DNA of 64,000 nucleotides from NCBI GenBank assembly GCA_943846585.1, contig OX044349.1, positions 1,028,008-1,092,007 on the forward strand, in the 5' to 3' direction. The stretch's first letter is position 1. Each line of letters begins with the position of its first letter. Origin of the DNA: an uncultured Polaribacter sp. Lineage in GTDB: Bacteria; Bacteroidota; Bacteroidia; Flavobacteriales; Flavobacteriaceae. The position numbers and the translations under genes were made by a program. This document shows, piece after piece, positions 4,820 through 43,283 of this stretch. Below the pieces are notes generated by a model. The model saw nothing but the letters and a program-made list of their open reading frames with translations. It had not been told where the DNA came from and made no database searches.

Positions 4820-6877
4820 ATGAAAAAAATAATCTTATTGCTTTTAATTTTAGGTGTCAATTTTAAAAGTCATGCCCAAATAAACCCAGACAATATTGAA
4901 ATTATAAGAGATGCCTATGGCGTTCCTCATATCTATGCAGCAACCGACGTTGAGGTTGCTTATGGTTTTGCATGGGCGCAGGCAGAAGATCATTTTAAAC
5001 TGCTACAAGAAGCCTATATTGCCGGCAATGGAATGTTAAGCAAACACATTGGTTTAAAAGGAGCAGGCGCCGATTTCTTAGTACAGCTTATCCAAGCAGA
5101 AAAAACGGTTGACGATCAATACCATTCCCTCGATAAAAAATTCATTGCTTTGCTAGAAGGGTTTACCCAAGGACTCAATGCCTTTGCCAACAAACACCCA
5201 AAAGAAGTCCTTCAAAAAGCACTTTTTCCCCTCACACCTAAAAAGCTTTTACGCTATACCCAATTGCAATTATTCATTTCCAATGGTGCAGATAAATTGG
5301 TAAAAGGGATTGTAAATAATGAATTGTCATGGCCTTATGAGATTGAGCAAGATACCAAAGGATCCAATTTATTGGCCATTAGTAGGAGCAGAACCCAATC
5401 CAACGAAACCTTTTTAGCTATCAACACGCACCAACCTTTAGAAGGCCCTACCTCTTGGTATGAAGCCCATTTAGTCAGTGAAGAGGGAACCAATATTATT
5501 GGAGCTACCTTTCCAGGATCCCCGTGTGTTTTAACAGGCGCCAATGCGTTTTTAGGTTGGACACACACCGTTAATTATCCTGATAAAGCAGACGTGTATG
5601 CTTTGGAAATGCATCCCAGTAAAAAAGACGTGTATTTGGTAGATGCCGAAGAACATCGTTTAGAAAAGTACAAAGCAAGGGTACATTTTAAATTTTTGGG
5701 AATGCGAATTCCGGTGAAGAAAACCTTTTATAAAAGTATCTACGGACCTACATTGAAAAACAAAACAGGTGTCTATGCAGTGCGAACTCCAAGTACAACC
5801 AACATCAATGCCATTGAGCAATGGTGGAAAATGAACAAGGCGAAAAATTTCACTGAGTTTTATAAGGCATTAGAAATGAAAGCACTCCCGGGCTATAATA
5901 TTGGGTATGCCGACAGAAACGATACCATTTTTTATATTTCGAATGGTAAAATTCCGATTCGAGCTGAAGGATATGATTGGACGGATGTTGTTCCTGGAAA
6001 CACACGCGCTACGCTTTGGGATACCTATTACGATATTAAAGATTTGCCACAAGTGGTACGGCCAAAATCTGGATTTGTTTACAATGCCAATCATACTCCA
6101 TTTAAATCCTCAGGAAAAGCTGACAATCCGAAGCCAGAAAATTTTGCAAAAGCAATGAATTTTGAAACCTACGACAACAATCGTTCTACACGCCTGTTGC
6201 AATTGCTCGAAGCAGAAGAACATATCGATTATGAGCGTTTCAAACGCATTAAATACGACCATCAATTGCCCACTCCGTTGCAGTACAATTATATGGATTT
6301 GAATCCCTTGTTTACTATGAAACCGGAAGATTATCTAGCAGTAAGTGTGTTGTTGTCAGATATTAAAAATTGGGATAGAATTACCAATCCAACATCTTAT
6401 GGAGCAGGCGCCTATGCGGTTTTGTATTACCAACTCAGACCTTTTTACGATGCTTTGGGTGCAGATAGCACCTTTACCCATGCCGCATTGTTCAGCGCAT
6501 TGAAAAAAACAAAGGCCTATCTCAAAAAACATTTTAAGAAAGAACGCATTCAATTAGGGGAATTTCAGCAATTGGTAAGAGGCGATAAGGCCCTCCCTAT
6601 TTTTGGTTTGCCAGATGTGGTGACTGCCATGCGAGGCGTCCCATATAAAGACGGACGTATGAAAATAACCCACGGAGAATCCTATATCGGAATGGTGCGT
6701 TTTACGCCTAACAAAACCTACTACGAATCGGTAATTTCTTTCGGAAATAGTCGCAGACCTGAAAGCCCAAATTATACCGATCAGATGGATTTGTATGCCA
6801 AGTTTAAAACAAAAACCATGTCGTTTGAGCGTGCCGAAGTTGTAAAAACTGCCATTAAAACCTATGCGCCAAAATAG
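4820..6877 (+). CDS. Penicillin acylase-family Ntn hydrolase (secreted)
   Basis: Signal peptide; IIRDAYGVPHIYA, YGFAWAQAEDH, beta-subunit nucleophile GSN, NTHQP, WYEAHL, NANHTPF. Confidence 0.9.
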   Translation: MKKIILLLLILGVNFKSHAQINPDNIEIIRDAYGVPHIYAATDVEVAYGFAWAQAEDHFKLLQEAYIAGNGMLSKHIGLKGAGADFLVQLIQAEKTVDDQYHSLDKKFIALLEGFTQGLNAFANKHPKEVLQKALFPLTPKKLLRYTQLQLFISNGADKLVKGIVNNELSWPYEIEQDTKGSNLLAISRSRTQSNETFLAINTHQPLEGPTSWYEAHLVSEEGTNIIGATFPGSPCVLTGANAFLGWTHTVNYPDKADVYALEMHPSKKDVYLVDAEEHRLEKYKARVHFKFLGMRIPVKKTFYKSIYGPTLKNKTGVYAVRTPSTTNINAIEQWWKMNKAKNFTEFYKALEMKALPGYNIGYADRNDTIFYISNGKIPIRAEGYDWTDVVPGNTRATLWDTYYDIKDLPQVVRPKSGFVYNANHTPFKSSGKADNPKPENFAKAMNFETYDNNRSTRLLQLLEAEEHIDYERFKRIKYDHQLPTPLQYNYMDLNPLFTMKPEDYLAVSVLLSDIKNWDRITNPTSYGAGAYAVLYYQLRPFYDALGADSTFTHAALFSALKKTKAYLKKHFKKERIQLGEFQQLVRGDKALPIFGLPDVVTAMRGVPYKDGRMKITHGESYIGMVRFTPNKTYYESVISFGNSRRPESPNYTDQMDLYAKFKTKTMSFERAEVVKTAIKTYAPK

Positions 6878-8193: not shown

Positions 8194-8224
8194 AAAAACC
8201 CACAGCCTTAAAAAGTTGTGGGTT
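8194..8224 (-). terminator. Intrinsic terminator-like hairpin beyond the displaced ssrA 3' fragment
   Basis: AACCCACA(GCCTTAAAAAGT)TGTGGGTT stem with an A5 run giving a U-tract on the minus strand; same stem as the hairpin at 12521-12551; could also terminate the convergent OYE gene. Confidence 0.7.
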
Positions 8225-8232
8225 ATTACTTT

Positions 8233-8247
8233 GTGGAGACGCCGAGA
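8233..8247. repeat. Direct repeat of the ssrA 3' end (att-like site, distal copy)
   Basis: GTGGAGACGCCGAGA at 8233-8247 is identical to 12557-12571; 19/21 identity when extended to 8253. Confidence 0.9.
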
Positions 8248-8340
8248 CTTGAAGAGCTCTTTTAGGGTGTGCTTAAAACCCTTTAAAATTAGTAATTCCT
8301 CAATATTTTCGATCTATAAGCTATTTTTAAAAGGTTTTTA

Positions 8341-8377
8341 GAAGATGAATAGGATAGCATGAAGATGAATAAGATAG
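8341..8377. repeat. Imperfect 17-bp direct repeat pair, 20-bp period
   Basis: GAAGATGAATAGGATAG (8341-8357) and GAAGATGAATAAGATAG (8361-8377). Confidence 0.85.
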
Positions 8378-8382
8378 AGATA

Positions 8383-8404
8383 ATGTTGACTAGATGTTGA
8401 CTAG
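8383..8404. repeat. Perfect 11-bp tandem repeat, candidate integrase arm-type sites
   Basis: ATGTTGACTAG x2 (8383-8393, 8394-8404), about 135-155 bp inside the distal att repeat; function inferred. Confidence 0.7.
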
Positions 8405-8444
8405 AATTTCACTACTAATTTTTATTAAATCTAATTTCTCAGCT

Positions 8445-9764
8445 TTATAAAATATTACCATACTCCGATTTATTAATTGATATAACTTTATACCTTTTAT
8501 CAAAAGTAGATTTTGATACAATTAGAAAATCGTTTCTATTTTTTGTAATTATTTTTAATTTTAGATTTATTTGCGTTATCATTTGGTTTCTAATTCGTTC
8601 GTTTTGAATTTTACTCAAATGATCTTGACTTACAATATCCATTACCTCGGAAAAATTCGTATCTTTTTTACTTATAATCTTAATTAATGAAATCGACAGA
8701 CTGTCTAGTTCTATAAATTCATTTTTAAACTGAATTCCATTTTCTAACAGTTGTATTTTTTTATTTTTCTGAAATCGTCTATAATAATAGAGTAAGGTAG
8801 ACAATCCCATAATGATTATTAATGTTATTATAAATATCAGAACAGAATAGTCCTTGGAATAAAAGTCATCTTTGTTATAAATGTCTTTAGTGATATCTTT
8901 AAGTTGTATTTTAGAGACCATCCTTCTTTTATTTATGTAGTAAACGAAATCATCGTAAAATATAGGATTTATATTTTCAAAATCATATAATTTTGGTGTT
9001 CTGATATAACTCGTTATTTTGTTATTATAAATAGTTATTTTATATAATTGTTTAGTTTCATCTAAAATATATAAGTCACCTTTATCATTAAAACTTCCGA
9101 AAATTTGATTCAAATTTTCTTCTTCATAGCTTCCTAGTAAAGACCATTTCTTGTTAACGAAATTAAAATTCCAGACATCTCTATTTACTCTGTTTTTTAT
9201 TCTTGATCCATTTTCTGTTAAAGATGTTCCTCCAAAGAAAGAATAATTACTACCCCAATTGATTCCAATATGTGAGTCTGTTGATCTAGGAATTTCTGAC
9301 TCACTAGAAATTGTGTAAATTTCCCATTCCTTTGTTAATTCATCATAATAAGTTATGAAATTAGACTGACTCCAATAACCATAACCACCATGTTTGAAAA
9401 GAGTATCGTTTTTTATAAAATTAACATTGTCAAGAAAAAAATTATGAATATTAGAATTATCAATTTTTACTAAGCTATCTTTTGTATTTAGTTTCAAAAT
9501 ATCTCCTCCTTTCTTATCTAAAAATAAAAGTTTTCTTTTCTTTATAAAGACTTTAAATTTTAAATCTTTAGCTCTTTTTATCTTCTTTTTATTGAGGATT
9601 TTCAAACTCTTAGAATCAACAAAGTATAAGGATTTATTTGTGAGATAAATGATCTCTTTATTTATAGAATCTAATGCGATATTAATTGGAATTTCATATG
9701 AATCCTTTTCCTGCGAAATAGTGAATATTGGAAGTAGAAAAATGATTTTTAAGAATGATTTCAT
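8445..9764 (-). CDS. Predicted single-pass membrane one-component regulator: kelch-like periplasmic domain, TM helix, C-terminal OmpR/PhoB-like winged helix
   Basis: N-terminal signal-like segment; kelch-like GGYGYW...YYDELTKEWE and FFGG...VWNFNFVNKKWS; TM aa ~307-328 followed by RRFQKNKK; C-terminal pattern strand-strand-LD-helix-helix-RIRNQMITQINLKL-hairpin. Confidence 0.6.
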   Translation of the reverse strand: MKSFLKIIFLLPIFTISQEKDSYEIPINIALDSINKEIIYLTNKSLYFVDSKSLKILNKKKIKRAKDLKFKVFIKKRKLLFLDKKGGDILKLNTKDSLVKIDNSNIHNFFLDNVNFIKNDTLFKHGGYGYWSQSNFITYYDELTKEWEIYTISSESEIPRSTDSHIGINWGSNYSFFGGTSLTENGSRIKNRVNRDVWNFNFVNKKWSLLGSYEEENLNQIFGSFNDKGDLYILDETKQLYKITIYNNKITSYIRTPKLYDFENINPIFYDDFVYYINKRRMVSKIQLKDITKDIYNKDDFYSKDYSVLIFIITLIIIMGLSTLLYYYRRFQKNKKIQLLENGIQFKNEFIELDSLSISLIKIISKKDTNFSEVMDIVSQDHLSKIQNERIRNQMITQINLKLKIITKNRNDFLIVSKSTFDKRYKVISINKSEYGNIL

Positions 9765-9922
9765 TTATATGATGTTAGTTAAAGTTAATTACAATCGACT
9801 ATAAATTTATAGAAACTAGAAATTATATTTTTTATATACTTTGTGTATTTTATAGCATCAATATAATGATGTTATTTAAATCAGGCAAATTTGCTTTTAT
9901 TTGTTATTATAAATAACATTCC

Positions 9923-12505
9923 ATGGCTAAATCATTTTTATTTCTACTACTCTCAATTTTTTTTTCAAATACTCTAAATTCTCAAACTTTTATTATTAAT
10001 TCTGGTAATACTCTTGATGCTGATGATCCTATAAATATTGTATTTCAATTAGATTCCATTATACAAAATAATATTTTTCCAATAGAAGAATTAAACTCTG
10101 ACCCAATAACAGTCAAATTTGAACATGTAGAAACACTCGTATACCAACCCAATGAAAATAATGTTGAAAATCCTTACAGGTATGAAACAAAAGAGTATGA
10201 TTTTGAAGATAAAATTATTACCCTATCAAATGTAGAAGGTACTTTTAAATATTCATTTGAATCCGAGGATAATTTTTTAGAATATTTTGATATTCCAATC
10301 GGTGAAAAGATGACATCTATTAGTATGTGGGTTGAATTCCCTAATTCTAATTTTTTTAATAATGACTTTTATGACACTAACTCAGAACAATATATTGGAG
10401 TTGTTGGTCCATATGGTCCACAATTTGAAGTTTTTTTTAAAGAGGGAATTGACAAAACCTTGTATTCAAATGTTTTTACAGTCTCAAACAATGTAGTTAA
10501 CTCTAACCTCAATAGTCTAATAATTTCGGCTACGGATGATATTAATATTGTGGTAAGAGATGATTGTGGTTCCGATAATTGTGAGAGATGGTTAGATAAT
10601 GCAAAAAAAAACTTGGCACATCCAATTTTTTCCGATTTTACTGGTGATGGTGTTAATGATTTAGTTGCTCGTGTATACAGTCTCGGTCTTGGAGACATTG
10701 ATTGGGAGTTAACAGATGAAGAGAAGGCTTTATATTTTTCGAGGTGGGTTTTGTTTAAAGGTGAGTCGTTCGGTGAAAACGAAGTTCAATACTCTTTTCA
10801 TTCTAGTTATGATCAAATAAATGAGGCTATCATACTTTATTCAAAAGATTTAGATGGTGATGGAGATTTAGATATTTATACAGTACCAGATGTATATCAC
10901 GGACTTGAATCCAATATGCCAGATGATTGGTCTGGGGAAGTAATTCTTTATTTGAATGACGGAAGTGGAACTTTTACTAGATTAGATGAAGATGTTGTCT
11001 TTCCTCCAAAAAGTATAATTGGACAACTAGATACAGATTCAGATATCGAATCAATTGGTTCACTTGCAAATAAATATGATTCAAGATACCTTTGGTTAGG
11101 TGAGAATTCTTCAGTGATTCAATTTTTCGACAAAGTAAATGGATCATACACTGAAACCAGATCTCCAGAAATATTTATCGAGCCAAAAGATGGAAACGAA
11201 ATTTTCTATAGAAAAGTAGTAGATTTGAAATTATATGACTTTAATAATGACGGTAACGATGATATTCTTTTTTGGTTGAGCCAACAAGAAATGTTAGAAA
11301 TTTATTTCGACGATGAGGGTAATTTTATAGGAGATACAGATACAATGTCACTTGAAGAATTAGGATTCATTTCTGAAAATTATTTTATAATCATACATGG
11401 TTCTGATACTGGATTTGATTTATCAAATACTGATTTTTCTAATGATATCCTATATACGTATTCCTCAAATTCATATGACGAGCATTATTCCTTTGATATC
11501 GTTCAACTGAGTGAAGGAAAAGATGTTGTATTCTTTATGGACATATTTTCTTCAGGACAATATGAAGATCTTTTCGATGATATTTATAACGGACCAATGT
11601 CAACGTTGTATGCTCTAGATATAGCTGGGGAGAACCTAACAGATATAACCAGTTCATTTTTTCAAAATGAGTCGAATATAAATTACATCTCATCTTCAAA
11701 TGCACCTGAATTTATGGATTTCAATAATGATGGATTACTTGATATCTATTTTTGGGGAGGTTGGGCCACATCAGCTACTGCTGCCAAATCACTATTCTTG
11801 ATCAATAAGACAACTCATTTTGAGAATGCTGTCGTTCCATTTCCAGATGTTAATGAATTTTTGTTGGGTGATTTTAATAATGACGGATATGTAAACTCAT
11901 TTCAACTGGTTGATAACGATTTAAAGTGGGCAACAAATATTCAGGTTTTTATAGAAAACGGTAGGAAAACTATAGATTATGAAAATAATACTCCTGTAAT
12001 TTTAAAACTACTTTTAGATACCACAATCCCAGTAATCACCCTAGTAGGAGATACAACCGTGACAATTGAAGTAGGAACTACCTACTCAGATGCAGGGGCC
12101 ACAGCATCTGATAACTATGATGGTGATATAACATCAAGTATTGTAGCTGTGAACCCAGTGGATGTTGGAGTTGTTGGTCAGTACACCGTAACTTACGATG
12201 TAACTGATGCTAATGGTAATCCAGCAAGTACTGTTACAAGAACAGTCATTGTGGAGTCAAGTCTTTCAGTTGAAGAGAATGATGAAAATGAGTTCAAAAT
12301 ATATCCAAACCCAACACTAAGTTCTTGGAAAATTAATTCCTCAAAAATTATAAAATCTCTTGAAATATTTGACTTAATTGGTAGGAAAGTATTGTTTAAA
12401 AAGCCAATGGCTAAAGATTTTGAAATTGACGCTAGTTTTTTACCAACAGGAATATATGTTATGGTCTTAAATAATAATATTATATCTAGATTAATTAAGA
12501 GTTAA
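9923..12505 (+). CDS. T9SS-secreted FG-GAP/VCBS-repeat protein with DUF5011 Ig-like domain and type A C-terminal sorting domain
   Basis: Signal peptide; DFTGDGVNDL, DLDGDGDLDI, DFNNDGNDDI, DFNNDGLLDI, DFNNDGYVN repeats; DTTIPVITLVGD...GATASDNYDGD...YTVTYDVTDANGN (DUF5011); FKIYPNPT...IFDLIGR...LPTGIYVM CTD. Confidence 0.88.
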   Translation: MAKSFLFLLLSIFFSNTLNSQTFIINSGNTLDADDPINIVFQLDSIIQNNIFPIEELNSDPITVKFEHVETLVYQPNENNVENPYRYETKEYDFEDKIITLSNVEGTFKYSFESEDNFLEYFDIPIGEKMTSISMWVEFPNSNFFNNDFYDTNSEQYIGVVGPYGPQFEVFFKEGIDKTLYSNVFTVSNNVVNSNLNSLIISATDDINIVVRDDCGSDNCERWLDNAKKNLAHPIFSDFTGDGVNDLVARVYSLGLGDIDWELTDEEKALYFSRWVLFKGESFGENEVQYSFHSSYDQINEAIILYSKDLDGDGDLDIYTVPDVYHGLESNMPDDWSGEVILYLNDGSGTFTRLDEDVVFPPKSIIGQLDTDSDIESIGSLANKYDSRYLWLGENSSVIQFFDKVNGSYTETRSPEIFIEPKDGNEIFYRKVVDLKLYDFNNDGNDDILFWLSQQEMLEIYFDDEGNFIGDTDTMSLEELGFISENYFIIIHGSDTGFDLSNTDFSNDILYTYSSNSYDEHYSFDIVQLSEGKDVVFFMDIFSSGQYEDLFDDIYNGPMSTLYALDIAGENLTDITSSFFQNESNINYISSSNAPEFMDFNNDGLLDIYFWGGWATSATAAKSLFLINKTTHFENAVVPFPDVNEFLLGDFNNDGYVNSFQLVDNDLKWATNIQVFIENGRKTIDYENNTPVILKLLLDTTIPVITLVGDTTVTIEVGTTYSDAGATASDNYDGDITSSIVAVNPVDVGVVGQYTVTYDVTDANGNPASTVTRTVIVESSLSVEENDENEFKIYPNPTLSSWKINSSKIIKSLEIFDLIGRKVLFKKPMAKDFEIDASFLPTGIYVMVLNNNIISRLIKS

Positions 12506-12520
12506 TTATATAAGAATAAT

Positions 12521-12551
12521 AAAACCCACATCTTCAAAGGTGTGGGTTTTT
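12521..12551 (-). terminator. ssrA intrinsic terminator (probably bidirectional)
   Basis: AAAACCCACA(TCTTCAAAGG)TGTGGGTTTT; A and T runs on both sides; lies between the convergent T9SS gene and ssrA. Confidence 0.8.
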
Positions 12552-12556
12552 ATTAA

Positions 12557-12571
12557 GTGGAGACGCCGAGA
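12557..12571. repeat. att-like repeat, proximal copy within the ssrA 3' end
   Basis: GTGGAGACGCCGAGA, identical to 8233-8247. Confidence 0.9.
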
Positions 12572-12824
12572 ATCGAACTCGGGTCCAAACAAGCAGCAAA
12601 AAAGCTTTCTACATATATAGTTCTTACTTGGTTGTCGGCCTAAAACTGATTAAGAACAATCCATTTTAAACGTATCTTTTTCAATTTCAAAAACTTGCCA
12701 AAGCATCAAGTTTCCTATGTTTACTTTTTCGATGCCCAAAAGTGAAACGCCGTAAACCAAGGCTTTTCGTGGACATAAAGCTTTCCCGCCTTGCGGGACT
12801 AGGCCAATCCTACTATGATTCGGA

Positions 12825-12854
12825 TTAAGCAGCTAAAGCGTAGTTATCTTCGCC
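12825..12854 (-). other. tmRNA-encoded proteolysis tag (A)GEDNYALAA*
   Basis: GGC GAA GAT AAC TAC GCT TTA GCT GCT TAA read on the minus strand; matches the Bacteroidota GExNYALAA tag type. Confidence 0.92.
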
Positions 12855-12967
12855 GGTTAAATAGTTGAAATGAGTTTTACAAGAATGATTTCAGTCCTTG
12901 ATATGCTTACAAATTTACAGAACTTGCTGTCAAAACCAGTCGTCCCCAGTTTTTTTTAATTCATTTA

Positions 12968-38433: not shown

Positions 38434-40101
38434 TTAAAAATAGGTAACGAAGTTAATGTTAAGTGTAGATTTTTTGTAATCAAAGGATTGGTTGTTTATC
38501 CTCCCTATGGCATAATTTAAATTCACCTGTGAATTGTTTGTTAAAAATTGATAACCAGCGCCAATACTAACTGCTTTTTTTGAAGTATTTAGGTTTCTAA
38601 ATTGACCAAAATCAGTAATCGTATAAATGAAGGATTTTTTAGATGCTAAAAAACGATAAGAAACATTGAAAAAGGAGTATTTAGTAGCAAACAAACTTTG
38701 AGCATTAAATCCTCTGATCGATTTTTCGCCGCCAATTCGATACATTTCATTCTGTAAAAAAGAAGCTGAATTTAGATACCCCGAATTGTTGGCAACGGAC
38801 AAACTGTTTCTTTCGTTGAATTCAAAAATATAAGAAGCCAATAGCGCTATTTTTAATTGATTTTCAGTTTGTGAATTGGAGGTTCTTTGACCTATCTTAG
38901 GATTGAAAAGTAGTTGTGCTTTTTGGCTTGAAAACACATCTTTGAGCGGGACTTTGTATTGGAAGGAAACGCCAATAAACTGACTGTTAAAAGCGGTTGT
39001 TGTCTCTGTATCTAATGCTGCTGTTATTATTTTCGATGAAATGTAATCGTAATTTATAGCCAGTTGAGTGCTCTTATTTAGAAAGAGGCTGAAATCGGTC
39101 TTAAATGCAGTATTCAAAAAAGTACTATCTTGTTTATATAATGAGAATTCGAATCGACTACTTAATGGGGAGTTGTAAAGAAACGGAATGTACGTTTTCA
39201 AGTTCAATTCCTGTCTTTCTTGGTCAAAGCGATTCCATAAGAGTGTTAATTCCTCTCCGCGGTTAAAAACATTCTGTAACTTTATATCGAGATATCCATT
39301 TAATTGGAGCGCACCAGAGGCATCGGAGTTGAAATTTACCAATCCGTCAAAACTGCTATTTTGCTTCTTTTTTAGATAAAGATATACGAGTGTTGAATCT
39401 TTTTTGAATAAGGTTTCAATGGGTTTGGTTTGTGTTACAAAAGAAACAGCTTCCAGTCGTTTTGTAATCTCTTTCAATTTTGATTTTGTAAATACGGTTT
39501 GTGCATCTATTTTTAAAAAATGGGTCACAAACGATTTTGGAAATTTTTCAAAGCCTTTCACAATCACCGAATTGATCGTTCTTTTATTGGAACTTATAAT
39601 CTGAAGGTCGGCAAATAAAACAGTTTCTTTAACGAAGGTGTTTTTTAAAGAAGTTTCTGCAAATGAAAATCCTTTTGCATCTAGTTGCTGGGTGATTTCT
39701 TCTAAAGTGGTCTCTAAATTGGCTGCAGCAACTTCGAGTACCCCATTTTTTATGTTGAATTTTTTGAGTAATTGATAATGAAGGGAGTCAACAGATAGGA
39801 GGGCGGTTTCAATTTTTTCACCAAGACTATAAGTAACCTTTGTAGTGTCTTTTACAGTCAGAAATTTTTGAATTCGAACACTAAAATATCCAGCAGATTT
39901 TAATTGTTTTTCAATGCGTGATGTTTCCTTATATAAGGAGGTAATATCTAAATGTTTTTTTTGATATTGAATTGCAGAAAGTTCCGTCTTGTTTTTTTCT
40001 TGTTCAGTGAAGATTTTTAAGTTCAATTTCTGTCCCTGTACTTCCTTTGTAAAAAAGAAGCAACAAATACTAAGGAGGTAAAAAGTTGTTTTTGTATTCA
40101 A
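38434..40101 (-). CDS. Omp85/TamA-like outer-membrane protein (POTRA-like domains plus beta-barrel)
   Basis: Signal peptide; LKSAGYF and LDAKGFSFA POTRA-like helices; NVFNRGEEL; YRIGGEKSIRGF lid motif; ends VTYF. TTG start. Confidence 0.75.
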   Translation of the reverse strand: MNTKTTFYLLSICCFFFTKEVQGQKLNLKIFTEQEKNKTELSAIQYQKKHLDITSLYKETSRIEKQLKSAGYFSVRIQKFLTVKDTTKVTYSLGEKIETALLSVDSLHYQLLKKFNIKNGVLEVAAANLETTLEEITQQLDAKGFSFAETSLKNTFVKETVLFADLQIISSNKRTINSVIVKGFEKFPKSFVTHFLKIDAQTVFTKSKLKEITKRLEAVSFVTQTKPIETLFKKDSTLVYLYLKKKQNSSFDGLVNFNSDASGALQLNGYLDIKLQNVFNRGEELTLLWNRFDQERQELNLKTYIPFLYNSPLSSRFEFSLYKQDSTFLNTAFKTDFSLFLNKSTQLAINYDYISSKIITAALDTETTTAFNSQFIGVSFQYKVPLKDVFSSQKAQLLFNPKIGQRTSNSQTENQLKIALLASYIFEFNERNSLSVANNSGYLNSASFLQNEMYRIGGEKSIRGFNAQSLFATKYSFFNVSYRFLASKKSFIYTITDFGQFRNLNTSKKAVSIGAGYQFLTNNSQVNLNYAIGRINNQSFDYKKSTLNINFVTYF

Positions 40102-41165: not shown

Positions 41166-43283
41166 ATGGCTAGAGATTTAAAATTCACAAGAAATATTGG
41201 TATTGCAGCGCACATTGATGCGGGTAAGACTACAACAACAGAACGTGTATTGTACTACACAGGAGTTTCTCACAAGATTGGAGAAGTTCATGATGGTGCA
41301 GCTACAATGGACTGGATGGAGCAAGAGCAAGAAAGAGGTATTACAATTACTTCTGCTGCTACAACTTGTACATGGGACTTTCCAATAGAAAACGGAGAAA
41401 AAACCCCAGATACAAAAGGGTATCACTTTAATATTATTGATACACCAGGTCACGTAGATTTTACTGTAGAAGTAAATAGATCTTTACGTGTTTTGGATGG
41501 TTTAGTTTTCTTATTTTCTGCTGTTGATGGTGTTGAGCCTCAATCAGAAACAAACTGGAGATTAGCCGACAACTATAAAGTACCAAGAATTGGTTTCGTT
41601 AATAAAATGGACCGTCAGGGATCTGACTTTTTAGGAGTTTGTCAACAAGTAAAAGATATGTTAAAATCAAACGCGGTGCCAATCGTTTTAAACATTGGTG
41701 ACGAAGATGAATTTAAAGGTATCATTGATTTAGTTAAGAATCGTGCTATTGTATGGCATGATGCAACTCAGGGAGCAACATTCGATGTGATCGAAATTCC
41801 TGAAGATATGAAAGAAGAAGCTCGTAAGTACCGTGCACTTTTAATTGAAGAAGTAGCAAGTTATGATGAGAATCTTTTAGAAAAATTCATGGAAGATGAA
41901 GATTCTATTACAGAAGAAGAAGTGCACAATGCATTAAGAGCTGCTGTAATGGACATGGCCATCATTCCAATGATTTGTGGATCTGCATTTAAAAACAAAG
42001 GAGTACAGTTTCTTTTAGACGCTGTATGTCGTTACTTGCCTTCTCCAATGGATAAGGAAGGTATTGTAGGTACAAATCCTGATACTGAGCAAGAAGAAAT
42101 ACGTAAGCCAAGTGTTGACGAGCCTTTTGCTGCATTGGCATTTAAGATTGCTACGGATCCTTTTGTAGGACGTTTGGCTTTCTTTAGAGCATATTCGGGT
42201 CGTTTAGATGCGGGTTCTTATGTGTTAAACAACCGTTCAGGTAAAAAAGAGCGTATCTCTCGTATTTATCAAATGCATGCAAATAAGCAAAATGCAATTG
42301 ACTATATTGAGGCTGGGGATATTGGTGCTGCTGTTGGATTTAAATCCATCAAAACAGGAGACACATTATCTGCTGAGAAATTTCCAATCGTATTAGAATC
42401 GATGGACTTCCCAGATCCAGTAATTGGTATTGCTGTAGAACCAAAAACGAAAGCAGATGTTGATAAGTTAGGAATTGGACTTGGTAAATTAGCCGAAGAA
42501 GATCCCACATTCACTGTGCGTTCAGACGAAGCTTCAGGACAAACGATTATTTCTGGAATGGGAGAATTACATTTAGATGTAATTGTAGACCGTCTAAAAC
42601 GTGAGTTTAAAGTTGAAGTAAACCAAGGACAACCTCAAGTTGAGTATAAGGAAGCAATTACTGCTGCTGCAGACCATAGAGAAGTTTATAAGAAACAATC
42701 TGGTGGACGTGGTAAGTTTGCAGATATTGTATTTACAATAGAGCCTGCAGATGAAGGTGTACAAGGTTTACAGTTTGAGTCAGTAATTAAAGGTGGTAAC
42801 GTTCCTCGTGAATTTGTTCCTTCTGTAGAGAAAGGATTTAGAGAAGCAATGAAGAACGGTCCTTTAGCAGGATACGAAATGGATTCAATGAAAGTTACTT
42901 TAAAAGACGGTTCTTTCCACGCAGTGGATTCGGATGCTTTGTCTTTTGAATTGGCAGCAAAAATGGGATATAAAGCTTCTGCTAAGTCAGCAAAAGCAAA
43001 AATCATGGAGCCATTGATGAAATTGGAAGTATTAACTCCTGAAGAAAACATGGGAGATATCGTAGGAGATTTAAACAGAAGAAGAGGTCAAGTAAATGAC
43101 ATGAGTGATCGTAATGGATCTAAAGTTGTAAAAGCATTAGTACCCTTATCAGAAATGTTCGGTTATGTAACTGCTTTAAGAACAATGTCTTCTGGTAGAG
43201 CTACTTCTACAATGGAATTTTCACACTATACTGAAACGCCTTCAAATGTATCTGAAGATGTTATCGCAAAAGCTAAAGGTTAA
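41166..43283 (+). CDS. fusA: Elongation factor G
   Basis: [30 protein letters not shown]. Confidence 0.99.

Follow-up and report, generated by a model that had tools for sequence, protein, structure and literature searches.

A putative reverse-topology membrane regulator with a kelch sensor, its candidate operator and a neighboring type IX secretion cargo gene in an uncultured Polaribacter

Membrane-bound one-component receptors of the ToxR/CadC kind (ToxR, TcpP, CadC, VtrA and PsaE) unite in one polypeptide an N-terminal OmpR-like winged helix for DNA binding, a single transmembrane helix and a C-terminal periplasmic sensor, with no phosphorelay, and they act as dimers at the membrane on AT-rich sites near the regulated gene; CadC is thought to be a membrane-anchored dimer on an AT-rich quasi-palindromic site (PMC5430869). 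Transmembrane transcription regulators (TTRs) in general are widespread and enriched in Bacteroidota, and the survey of them found its members through Pfam DNA-binding domains (PMC10269533). The subject here is a protein of 439 amino acids (aa) which by prediction has a different order of parts, a signal peptide, a kelch propeller, one transmembrane helix and then a C-terminal winged helix. Its gene is in a 64,000-nucleotide stretch of an uncultured Polaribacter sp. (contig OX044349.1, positions 1,028,008 to 1,092,007; the whole stretch is termed the window), where it is divergent from a gene whose product is a cargo of the system for type IX secretion (T9SS). On balance the protein is probably a type I membrane one-component regulator that has its kelch sensor outside and its winged helices on a palindrome between the two genes, and that controls both its own gene and the cargo gene.

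In common with the ToxR/CadC-like receptors it is a single polypeptide with a single transmembrane helix and no phosphorelay, it has, here by prediction, a cytoplasmic OmpR-like winged helix and a periplasmic sensor, and dimers at the membrane on an AT-rich site near the regulated gene are proposed for it too. It differs in the reversed order of its parts, in a DNA-binding domain that is unseen by the Pfam model Trans_reg_C, in the kelch sensor, in a perfect 22-bp palindrome as putative site, in its phylum, Bacteroidota, and in its putative target class, T9SS cargo. While it would work like a ToxR/CadC receptor, it is not a member of that family, because its domain order is reversed and Trans_reg_C does not match it. 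With TTRs it shares membrane integration and a DNA-binding domain of its own (here the predicted transmembrane helix and winged helix), and by prediction it belongs to that class, though the survey would have missed its family because Pfam DNA-binding domains were used. The hybrid TTRs and hybrid two-component systems of Bacteroidota also have an N-terminal periplasmic sensor and a C-terminal DNA-binding domain, but, in contrast to hybrid two-component systems and SusR-like regulators, the present protein has a winged helix rather than an AraC-type helix-turn-helix (HTH), and its identity as one of these was ruled out since none of HisKA, HATPase_c, receiver or AraC-type HTH is present. Regulation tied to type IX secretion is known in Bacteroidota from PorX/PorY/SigP of Porphyromonas gingivalis (PMC5005315), in which a two-component system and an extracytoplasmic function (ECF) sigma factor act on machinery genes and PorX binds PorL, not promoters, whereas what is linked to individual cargo genes here is one membrane protein. 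A literature search found no paper linking kelch proteins with T9SS regulation.

The membrane protein and its predicted winged helix

In window coordinates, the two genes and the parts of the regulator are:

8445..9764, minus strand: regulator gene, encoding the 439-aa kelch, transmembrane and winged-helix protein, a putative transmembrane one-component regulator (from the list of open reading frames, ORFs, and homologues)
9714..9764, minus strand: signal peptide, aa 1-17, predicted to be cut off ahead of Q18 (inferred from alignment A1 and the Q-rule)
8850..9713, minus strand: periplasmic kelch-type beta-propeller, aa 18-305 (kelch models and Foldseek)
8781..8846, minus strand: single transmembrane helix, aa 307-328, then RRFQKNKK (hydropathy, and a helix at aa 307-335 in the AlphaFold2, AF2, model)
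8448..8768, minus strand: divergent winged-helix domain, aa 333-439, predicted cytoplasmic (AF2 and Foldseek)
9923..12505, plus strand: T9SS cargo gene, 860 aa, with FG-GAP repeats, an immunoglobulin (Ig)-like domain and a type A C-terminal sorting domain (Pfam and NCBIfam above cut-off)

A preliminary description of the window had given the 439-aa protein a signal-like N-terminus, kelch repeats and a single transmembrane helix followed by a basic stretch, and had found it to be without a kinase or receiver domain, all of which is borne out. The signal peptide ends at S17/Q18, where an alignment of 27 homologues (A1) shows almost no variation at S17 and none at Q18, and cleavage is predicted before Q18 because its invariance fits the Q-rule of Bacteroidetes signal peptidase I substrates (PMC5837995). 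The segment at aa 307-328 is the sole strong hydrophobic one, with a Kyte-Doolittle peak of 2.7 at aa 307, and it runs into YYYRRFQKNKK. The kelch assignment holds at the level of the family, in which kelch models match 73 of 74 members, and by structural match, the full-length model resembling the kelch propellers of KLHDC2, KLHDC3, LZTR1 and KBTBD4 (Foldseek E about 1e-5); the protein taken alone is below threshold (28 bits versus a Pfam cut-off of 50), and the full-length AF2 model is poor over aa 104-159, so that the number of propeller blades is not fixed by it. Scans with Pfam and NCBIfam gave no kinase, receiver or other domain in the protein, with HisKA, HATPase and Response_reg all unmatched.

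No part of the protein is better conserved than its C-terminal domain, of 107 aa, within which helix 3 and the wing are the most conserved. The motifs HLSKIQNER, at the start of helix 3 (the recognition helix), and KSxFD(K/A)RYK, in the wing, do not vary in any clade, even at overall identities as low as 37%. In an exhaustive profile search the domain was detected in 133 representative clusters at 50% identity, nearly always as the last ~105 residues of kelch-transmembrane proteins of 435-490 aa and in no other architecture, and a word-indexed search gave short fragments only. The preliminary description had also recognized a winged-helix pattern here and had named structure prediction and Foldseek as the check on it. 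With a 49-sequence alignment (A4), AF2 predicts for the domain, at pLDDT 91.4 and pTM 0.82, three strands followed by helix 1, a short strand and helix 2, then the long helix 3 and, last, a beta-hairpin, which is the layout of the OmpR/PhoB effector domain. The top 50 Foldseek matches in the PDB are all winged-helix DNA-binding domains, of which the best over the whole domain is that of E. coli CadC (5ju7; TM score 0.58/0.58 over 93 columns) and the next are those of SaeR (TM scores 0.50-0.56). We conclude that the domain is, as modeled, a divergent winged helix of the OmpR/CadC kind that has not yet been classified. Its location is predicted to be the cytoplasm rather than the periplasm, because the positive-inside rule and the cleavable signal agree on this.

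Sequence-level support for kinship with OmpR and CadC is weak but consistent. Searching PDB sequences with a 13-sequence profile (hmmsearch) gave nothing meaningful, and with a 49-sequence profile it gave sub-threshold matches only, 5 of 12 of them being DNA-binding domains of the OmpR family in the right register. Trans_reg_C, unmatched by the 439-aa protein, matches 1 of 74 relatives (E 0.0024). Comparison by hhalign with OmpR, PhoB, KdpE, CadC and ToxR gave a local P of 3e-4 over 80 collinear columns, to be taken as a lead only, and the family received no significant score from a crude hidden Markov model (HMM) made from the same five sequences.

Homologues of about 440 aa number 247. They come from abundant uncultured lineages, including Polaribacter-like metagenome-assembled genomes (MAGs), single-amplified genomes (SAGs) and Tara Oceans metagenome contigs, and in the source records they are named 'hypothetical protein' or, spuriously, 'FtsL'; cluster look-ups for the family gave no informative names. 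Several JGI records have 'cell division protein FtsL', for which domain analysis gives no support, and the label is probably an annotation artefact of the single transmembrane helix. A tblastn search of the window found no paralogue of the regulator. The same program gave a weak match (E 0.012) between the kelch region and a 555-aa ORF (38434-40101, minus strand) that has a weak Pfam POTRA match and is probably unrelated to the kelch protein. In three loci (L020:5185-6511, L021:10001-11327 and L102), all with a context of cargo, kelch and PorP/SprF genes, the gene is split into two ORFs, for example of 157 and 300 aa, and these are probably pseudogenes or assembly frameshifts.

The palindrome and the genes beside it

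The two ORFs and their divergent spacer of 158 bp (9765-9922) have exactly the coordinates that the preliminary description gave them. Comparing the regions upstream of homologues, in 13 genome loci and about 90 metagenome loci that group into 13 clades at 70% identity (the metagenome loci were collected by a scan with a 21-sequence alignment), brought out a 22-bp palindrome, TAnnATCATTnnAATGATnnTA, with the consensus form TAACATCATTACAATGATGTTA. In the window the sites in and next to the spacer are:

9853..9874, no strand: operator-like palindrome TAGCATCAATATAATGATGTTA, with one mismatch to the core ATCATTNNAATGAT (locus comparison and palindrome enumeration)
9886..9893, no strand: candidate Bacteroidetes -7 box CAAATTTG, matching TAnnTTTG at 7 of 8 positions and itself palindromic (pattern search)
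9756..9777, no strand: possible second, half-degenerate site over the regulator start codon, with a TAACATCAT half on the minus strand (3 mismatches in 16; kept in L005, L023 and L024)

The first of these precedes the cargo ATG by 48 bp and the regulator ATG by 88 bp, with its center about 59 bp from the former, which is the same geometry as in other clades. The core, which has 12 specified bases, occurs exactly 62 times in the 1.10 Mb of window and loci, where about 0.5 occurrences would be expected from base composition (our arithmetic), and 61 of these sites are intergenic. Their distance upstream of the family gene is 85-92 bp or, in some clades, 33-66 bp, and where a T9SS cargo gene adjoins they precede it by 32-56 bp. 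Among all palindromes of the form 6-N(0-6)-6 upstream of family genes it ranks first, with presence in 5 of 13 clades versus at most 2 for any other. There are extra copies before second cargo genes (L026:7381 and L029:3803), and in the clade of L072, L073, L090 and L101 the site follows the regulator gene and is 44-53 bp before the next cargo gene; the kelch, transmembrane and winged-helix gene is the only gene common to all contexts of the palindrome. The sole exact core match that is not intergenic, which is also the only exact one in the window, at 41961-41974 inside ORF 41166-43283, is without the TA..TA flanks and is consistent with chance.

The palindrome ends 11 bp before the candidate -7 box, which was found with TAnnTTTG, a pattern that we take to be the Bacteroidetes -7 consensus, and at this distance it would cover the expected -33 region of the cargo promoter. 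Because of that overlap, repression of the cargo gene is as possible as activation, and the 'switching on' that had been proposed in the preliminary description is not favored over it. A scan for sigma-70 promoters stayed at or below the level of shuffled sequence, keeping in mind that the sigma-70 consensus does not apply to Bacteroidota. That the palindrome is a terminator is argued against by its 2-nucleotide loop, its AT-rich arms and its position between divergent starts. For the site over the regulator start codon the evidence is weak.

Among close clades, residues of the recognition helix and wing show no co-variation with presence of the palindrome, because the recognition helix is invariant there. 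Distant members with another recognition helix (HLHxSQ...) have beside the gene other long palindromes around TTGT/ACAA, for example TAATTGTTGTATTATAATACAACAATTA (L103:~6830-6866, L106:~8502-8529, L108:~2920-2945 and L110:~2910-2940), which are heterogeneous and only four in number; this hints that recognition helix and site co-vary across the family.

The product of the other divergent gene is, as had been described, an acidic FG-GAP protein with a T9SS sorting domain. Its pI is 4.05, with 145 acidic versus 47 basic residues, it has four motifs of the DxDxDG type, and Pfam finds FG-GAP_3 in five stretches, Bact_surface_Ig-like at aa 705-777 and Por_Secre_tail at aa 793-853. The sorting domain scores 35 bits with PF18962 (cut-off 27) and 32.3 bits with TIGR04183 (cut-off 23), both at aa 793-858, the segment aa 793-860 corresponding to nucleotides 12299-12502, and together with the signal-like N-terminus MAKSFLFLLLSIFFSNTLNS/Q this makes the protein a type A cargo. 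No second T9SS sorting domain was found in the window with tblastn. Orthologues of the cargo gene are divergent from the regulator gene in L005, L009, L023 and L025.

Neighbors of the other family genes were classified with a sorting-domain HMM which was built from Pfam-verified examples and agreed with Pfam in every case checked. A Por_Secre_tail gene is immediately adjacent in 5 of the 13 clades, and the adjacent cargos are of four non-homologous passenger types:

FG-GAP/Ig: window clade and L009
DUF285 arrays: L006, L010 and L026
Sortilin/BNR, with or without a carbohydrate-binding module (CBM): L015 and L080
FG-GAP plus DUF285, sulfatase, and an enzyme like glycoside hydrolase family 59 (GH59): L072, L090 and L101

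PorP/SprF is within three genes in 3 clades, one of which also has an adjacent cargo gene, and in yet another clade a cargo gene is two positions off, so that some T9SS gene is close by in 8 of the 13 clades in all. The background frequency is 11 in 473 ORFs (2.3%) for the remainder of the loci and 1 in 62 for the window. At a rate of about 4.6% per gene pair, the binomial probability of finding 4 independent associations among 12 units is about 0.002 (our arithmetic). The link to secreted-protein genes that had been expected of homologues is thus upheld in part: it recurs, with unrelated passenger domains, but is not universal, being absent from several clades and from distant members. In clade C (L001-L004, L011-L013 and many others) a gene for a 958-aa hybrid of histidine kinase, receiver and AraC-type HTH is divergent from the kelch gene, about 200 bp upstream, and shares the spacer with the palindrome; it may be a target or a partner.

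A tethered regulator and its alternatives

After cleavage of its signal peptide the regulator would be a type I membrane protein that has its kelch propeller in the periplasm and its divergent OmpR/CadC-like winged helix in the cytoplasm, in the reverse of the order in ToxR and CadC. As a membrane-held dimer it would place its two winged helices on the two half-sites of the palindrome in the spacer, and from there it would control its own gene and the adjacent gene for a calcium-binding, adhesin-like FG-GAP/Ig protein. Control would respond to something bound by the propeller, for which a carbohydrate or a surface-derived cue is a reasonable guess because the cargos encoded nearby resemble lectins or adhesins or act on polysaccharides. 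Single-pass proteins in a parallel dimer naturally hold their two domains head-to-head, in keeping with an inverted repeat whose half-site centers are about 12 bp apart, and a target gene that adjoins the regulator gene and has a Sec-exported product would suit a membrane-tethered factor. The computations show how the protein is built, which fold it is predicted to have, that its recognition helix is conserved across the family, that a conserved palindrome keeps fixed distances and that T9SS genes recur as neighbors; we infer from them that the protein binds DNA, that the palindrome is its site, that it dimerizes, that it has a ligand, and that its effect on the two genes may be of either sign.

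The findings that had been named beforehand as telling against such a regulator, a C-terminal domain of some other fold, a periplasmic C-terminus and a lack of linkage to secreted-protein genes, turned out otherwise in computation: a winged helix is predicted, its predicted place is the cytoplasm and the linkage recurs. Overall the earlier interpretation is partly supported, its core being upheld by computation, with the conserved palindrome as additional and independent support. One MAG of Polaribacter (Co_bin_745) has two paralogues of the regulator with identical recognition helices, one beside an FG-GAP cargo gene with a degenerate palindrome (L009) and one beside a gene of glycoside hydrolase family 16 (GH16) without the palindrome (L019), and from this several sensors might converge on the same operators.

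A number of observations weigh against the tethered regulator. The C-terminal domain has no match in Pfam or NCBIfam, its Foldseek E-values are marginal (0.03-0.3), and by E-value it is MarR-type structures that lead (0.03-0.1), ranking as high as those of OmpR type. Domains of the OmpR/PhoB type usually bind direct repeats, not perfect palindromes. The 62 exact sites are not independent, many loci being close relatives; the window copy carries one core mismatch; its right half-site is degraded in relatives of 92% identity (L005, L023 and L024); and within the window alone there are 11 matches with up to 2 mismatches versus 11.1 expected, which is the level of chance. T9SS neighbors are absent from the loci of clades E and F and from those of distant members of 20-27% identity (L103, L105, L106, L108 and L110). 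Finally, clades D, E and F have the identical recognition helix but no palindrome within their loci, so that either their targets are distant or the palindrome belongs to another factor.

MarR-family repressors (PefR, ZitR/AdcR and HpaR), which provide the top Foldseek matches by E-value, bind palindromes of 16-22 bp as dimers, often in divergent spacers and with autoregulation. They are, however, soluble proteins with N- and C-terminal dimerization helices, in contrast to the transmembrane helix and the three-stranded sheet, as in OmpR/PhoB, of the present protein, and TM scores to MarR chains are lower (0.40-0.52). MarR identity was ruled out, as the model has no flanking dimerization helices and Pfam gives no MarR match.

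If the palindrome does belong to another factor, it could be the operator of a soluble regulator, for instance a global metal- or nutrient-responsive repressor, with the kelch and cargo genes its mere targets and the winged helix there for protein contacts or some other role. Besides the three clades that share the recognition helix without a nearby palindrome, such a reading can draw on the predictive nature of the evidence for the DNA-binding fold, and on the palindrome hexamers, AATGAT and ATCATT, which are those of the classical Fur box in the opposite arrangement (given that arrangement, a Fur box as such was set aside). It is nevertheless unlikely, as the exact intergenic site is found only beside family genes or their cargo neighbors, in at least six unrelated genomic contexts within 1.1 Mb, those contexts have no other regulator gene in common, and the cytoplasmic domain is basic (pI 9.9), with helix 3 and the wing as the most conserved parts of the whole protein.

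Some of the neighborhoods could also point to a T9SS-associated envelope factor, such as a chaperone of the periplasm, a sensor for quality control or, for particular cargos, a partner of PorP/SprF in assembly, and its cytoplasmic winged helix would be for protein docking. The ancestral position of the family gene is probably beside PorP/SprF-murI-ompH-ompH-bamA, as in clades C and D, and in clade D the order cargo, kelch gene, PorP/SprF, all on one strand, is operon-like. But this leaves the palindrome at fixed promoter-proximal distances unexplained, and likewise the invariant basic helix 3 and wing, and there are family members with no T9SS genes nearby; the proposal appears quite improbable.

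More improbable again is a variant in which the same regulator acts by regulated proteolysis, the signal causing the winged helix to be cut from the membrane as a soluble factor. Cleavage-dependent activation has reportedly been proposed for CadC, and a released domain would more easily reach distant sites in the case of the clade D-F paralogues, but the sequence gives no sign of a cleavage site, only about 5-10 residues link the transmembrane helix to the domain, and the targets adjoin the gene, which suits the tethered regulator preferred here.

A tmRNA-linked islet and the wider family

The gene pair is in an islet next to the gene for tmRNA, with these features:

12555..12947, minus strand: tmRNA gene (ssrA), tag peptide GEDNYALAA (ARAGORN; Rfam RF00023, 139.5 bits, E 1.4e-55)
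8195..8253, no strand: left islet repeat, a hairpin and the tmRNA 3'-end-like sequence GTGGAGACGCCGAGA (repeat families D1 and D14)
12521..12577, no strand: right islet repeat, a hairpin and the true tmRNA 3' end (repeat search and alignment)
8341..8405, no strand: two short tandem repeats between regulator stop and left repeat (17-20 nucleotides twice at 8341-8377, and TGTTGACTAGA twice at 8384-8405)

As the preliminary description had it, the two genes are the only credible ones inside the islet, which lies between the direct repeats 8195-8253 and 12521-12577. The repeat is imperfect and consists of the last ~21 nucleotides of the tmRNA gene plus a hairpin, which in the left copy is terminator-like and at 8197-8224; its core (8212-8253 versus 12536-12577) is 83% identical over 42 nucleotides and includes GTGGAGACGCCGAGA. 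Like other genomic islands at tmRNA genes, the islet is directly 3' of ssrA, is bounded by a repeat of the ssrA 3' end and deviates in GC content (23-28% over the regulator gene versus 36-42% in the flanks). It differs from them in being only 4.3 kb, in having just two genes and no mobility gene, and in being one unit of an apparent array; ORFs and Pfam scans of both proteins gave no integrase or other mobility gene between the repeats.

The tmRNA side and left repeat of the window recur in L023 and L024, whose sequences part from it beyond 8233. In L005 the homology is limited to 8395-12562 (94% identity) and different genes adjoin on the regulator side, while alignment shows in its cargo-side flank a second att-like copy of 'CTCCAC + hairpin'; no tRNA or tmRNA was found in the L005 flank to account for its different junction. 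The tandem repeats at 8341-8405 are present in the tmRNA-linked L023 and L024 and absent from L005, where homology starts at 8395, and they may be remnants of recombinase arm sites. The portable module of the preliminary description thus survives only in part: the pair fits one unit of a variable tmRNA-linked islet array and past mobility, not self-contained movement, there being no integrase, and att-like repeats are still found in L005 where the flanks are different. That the two genes are unrelated leftovers of a decayed tmRNA-linked island, with no regulatory relation, is the least probable reading and already disfavored, for although T9SS cargo genes are numerous in Flavobacteriaceae and the islet has been stripped of its integrase and presumably of further genes, several contigs retain the pair at 62-92% protein identity, other clades have non-homologous cargos as neighbors to the extent given above and the operator-like site sits between both genes.

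For the family as a whole a broader proposal is made tentatively, at rather less than even confidence. Its members, with the 439-aa protein as the founding one, would be a previously unrecognized, Flavobacteriaceae-wide group of reverse-topology transmembrane transcription factors which use a new, Pfam-invisible branch of the OmpR/CadC winged helix, bind a perfect palindrome as membrane-held dimers and serve as local switches for single T9SS cargo genes, those for adhesins, lectins and polysaccharide-degrading enzymes, in response to periplasmic cues, with subfamilies pairing different recognition helices with different palindromes.

Marine Flavobacteriaceae are key degraders of algal polysaccharides and particles, and how they choose among their many T9SS-secreted adhesins and enzymes is largely unknown. 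The family offers a simple unit for addressing this, one membrane protein, one 22-bp site and one neighboring cargo gene. It also means that Pfam-based censuses of transmembrane regulators miss whole families, and it brings in the kelch propeller as a further sensor domain of the bacterial periplasm. If the proposal of local switches is true, it would be the first case of a transcriptional control logic that is cargo-specific in the type IX secretion of marine bacteria, the defined operator would permit regulons to be predicted directly from metagenomes, and the compact pair of sensor and promoter would be of use for genetic tools in Bacteroidota.

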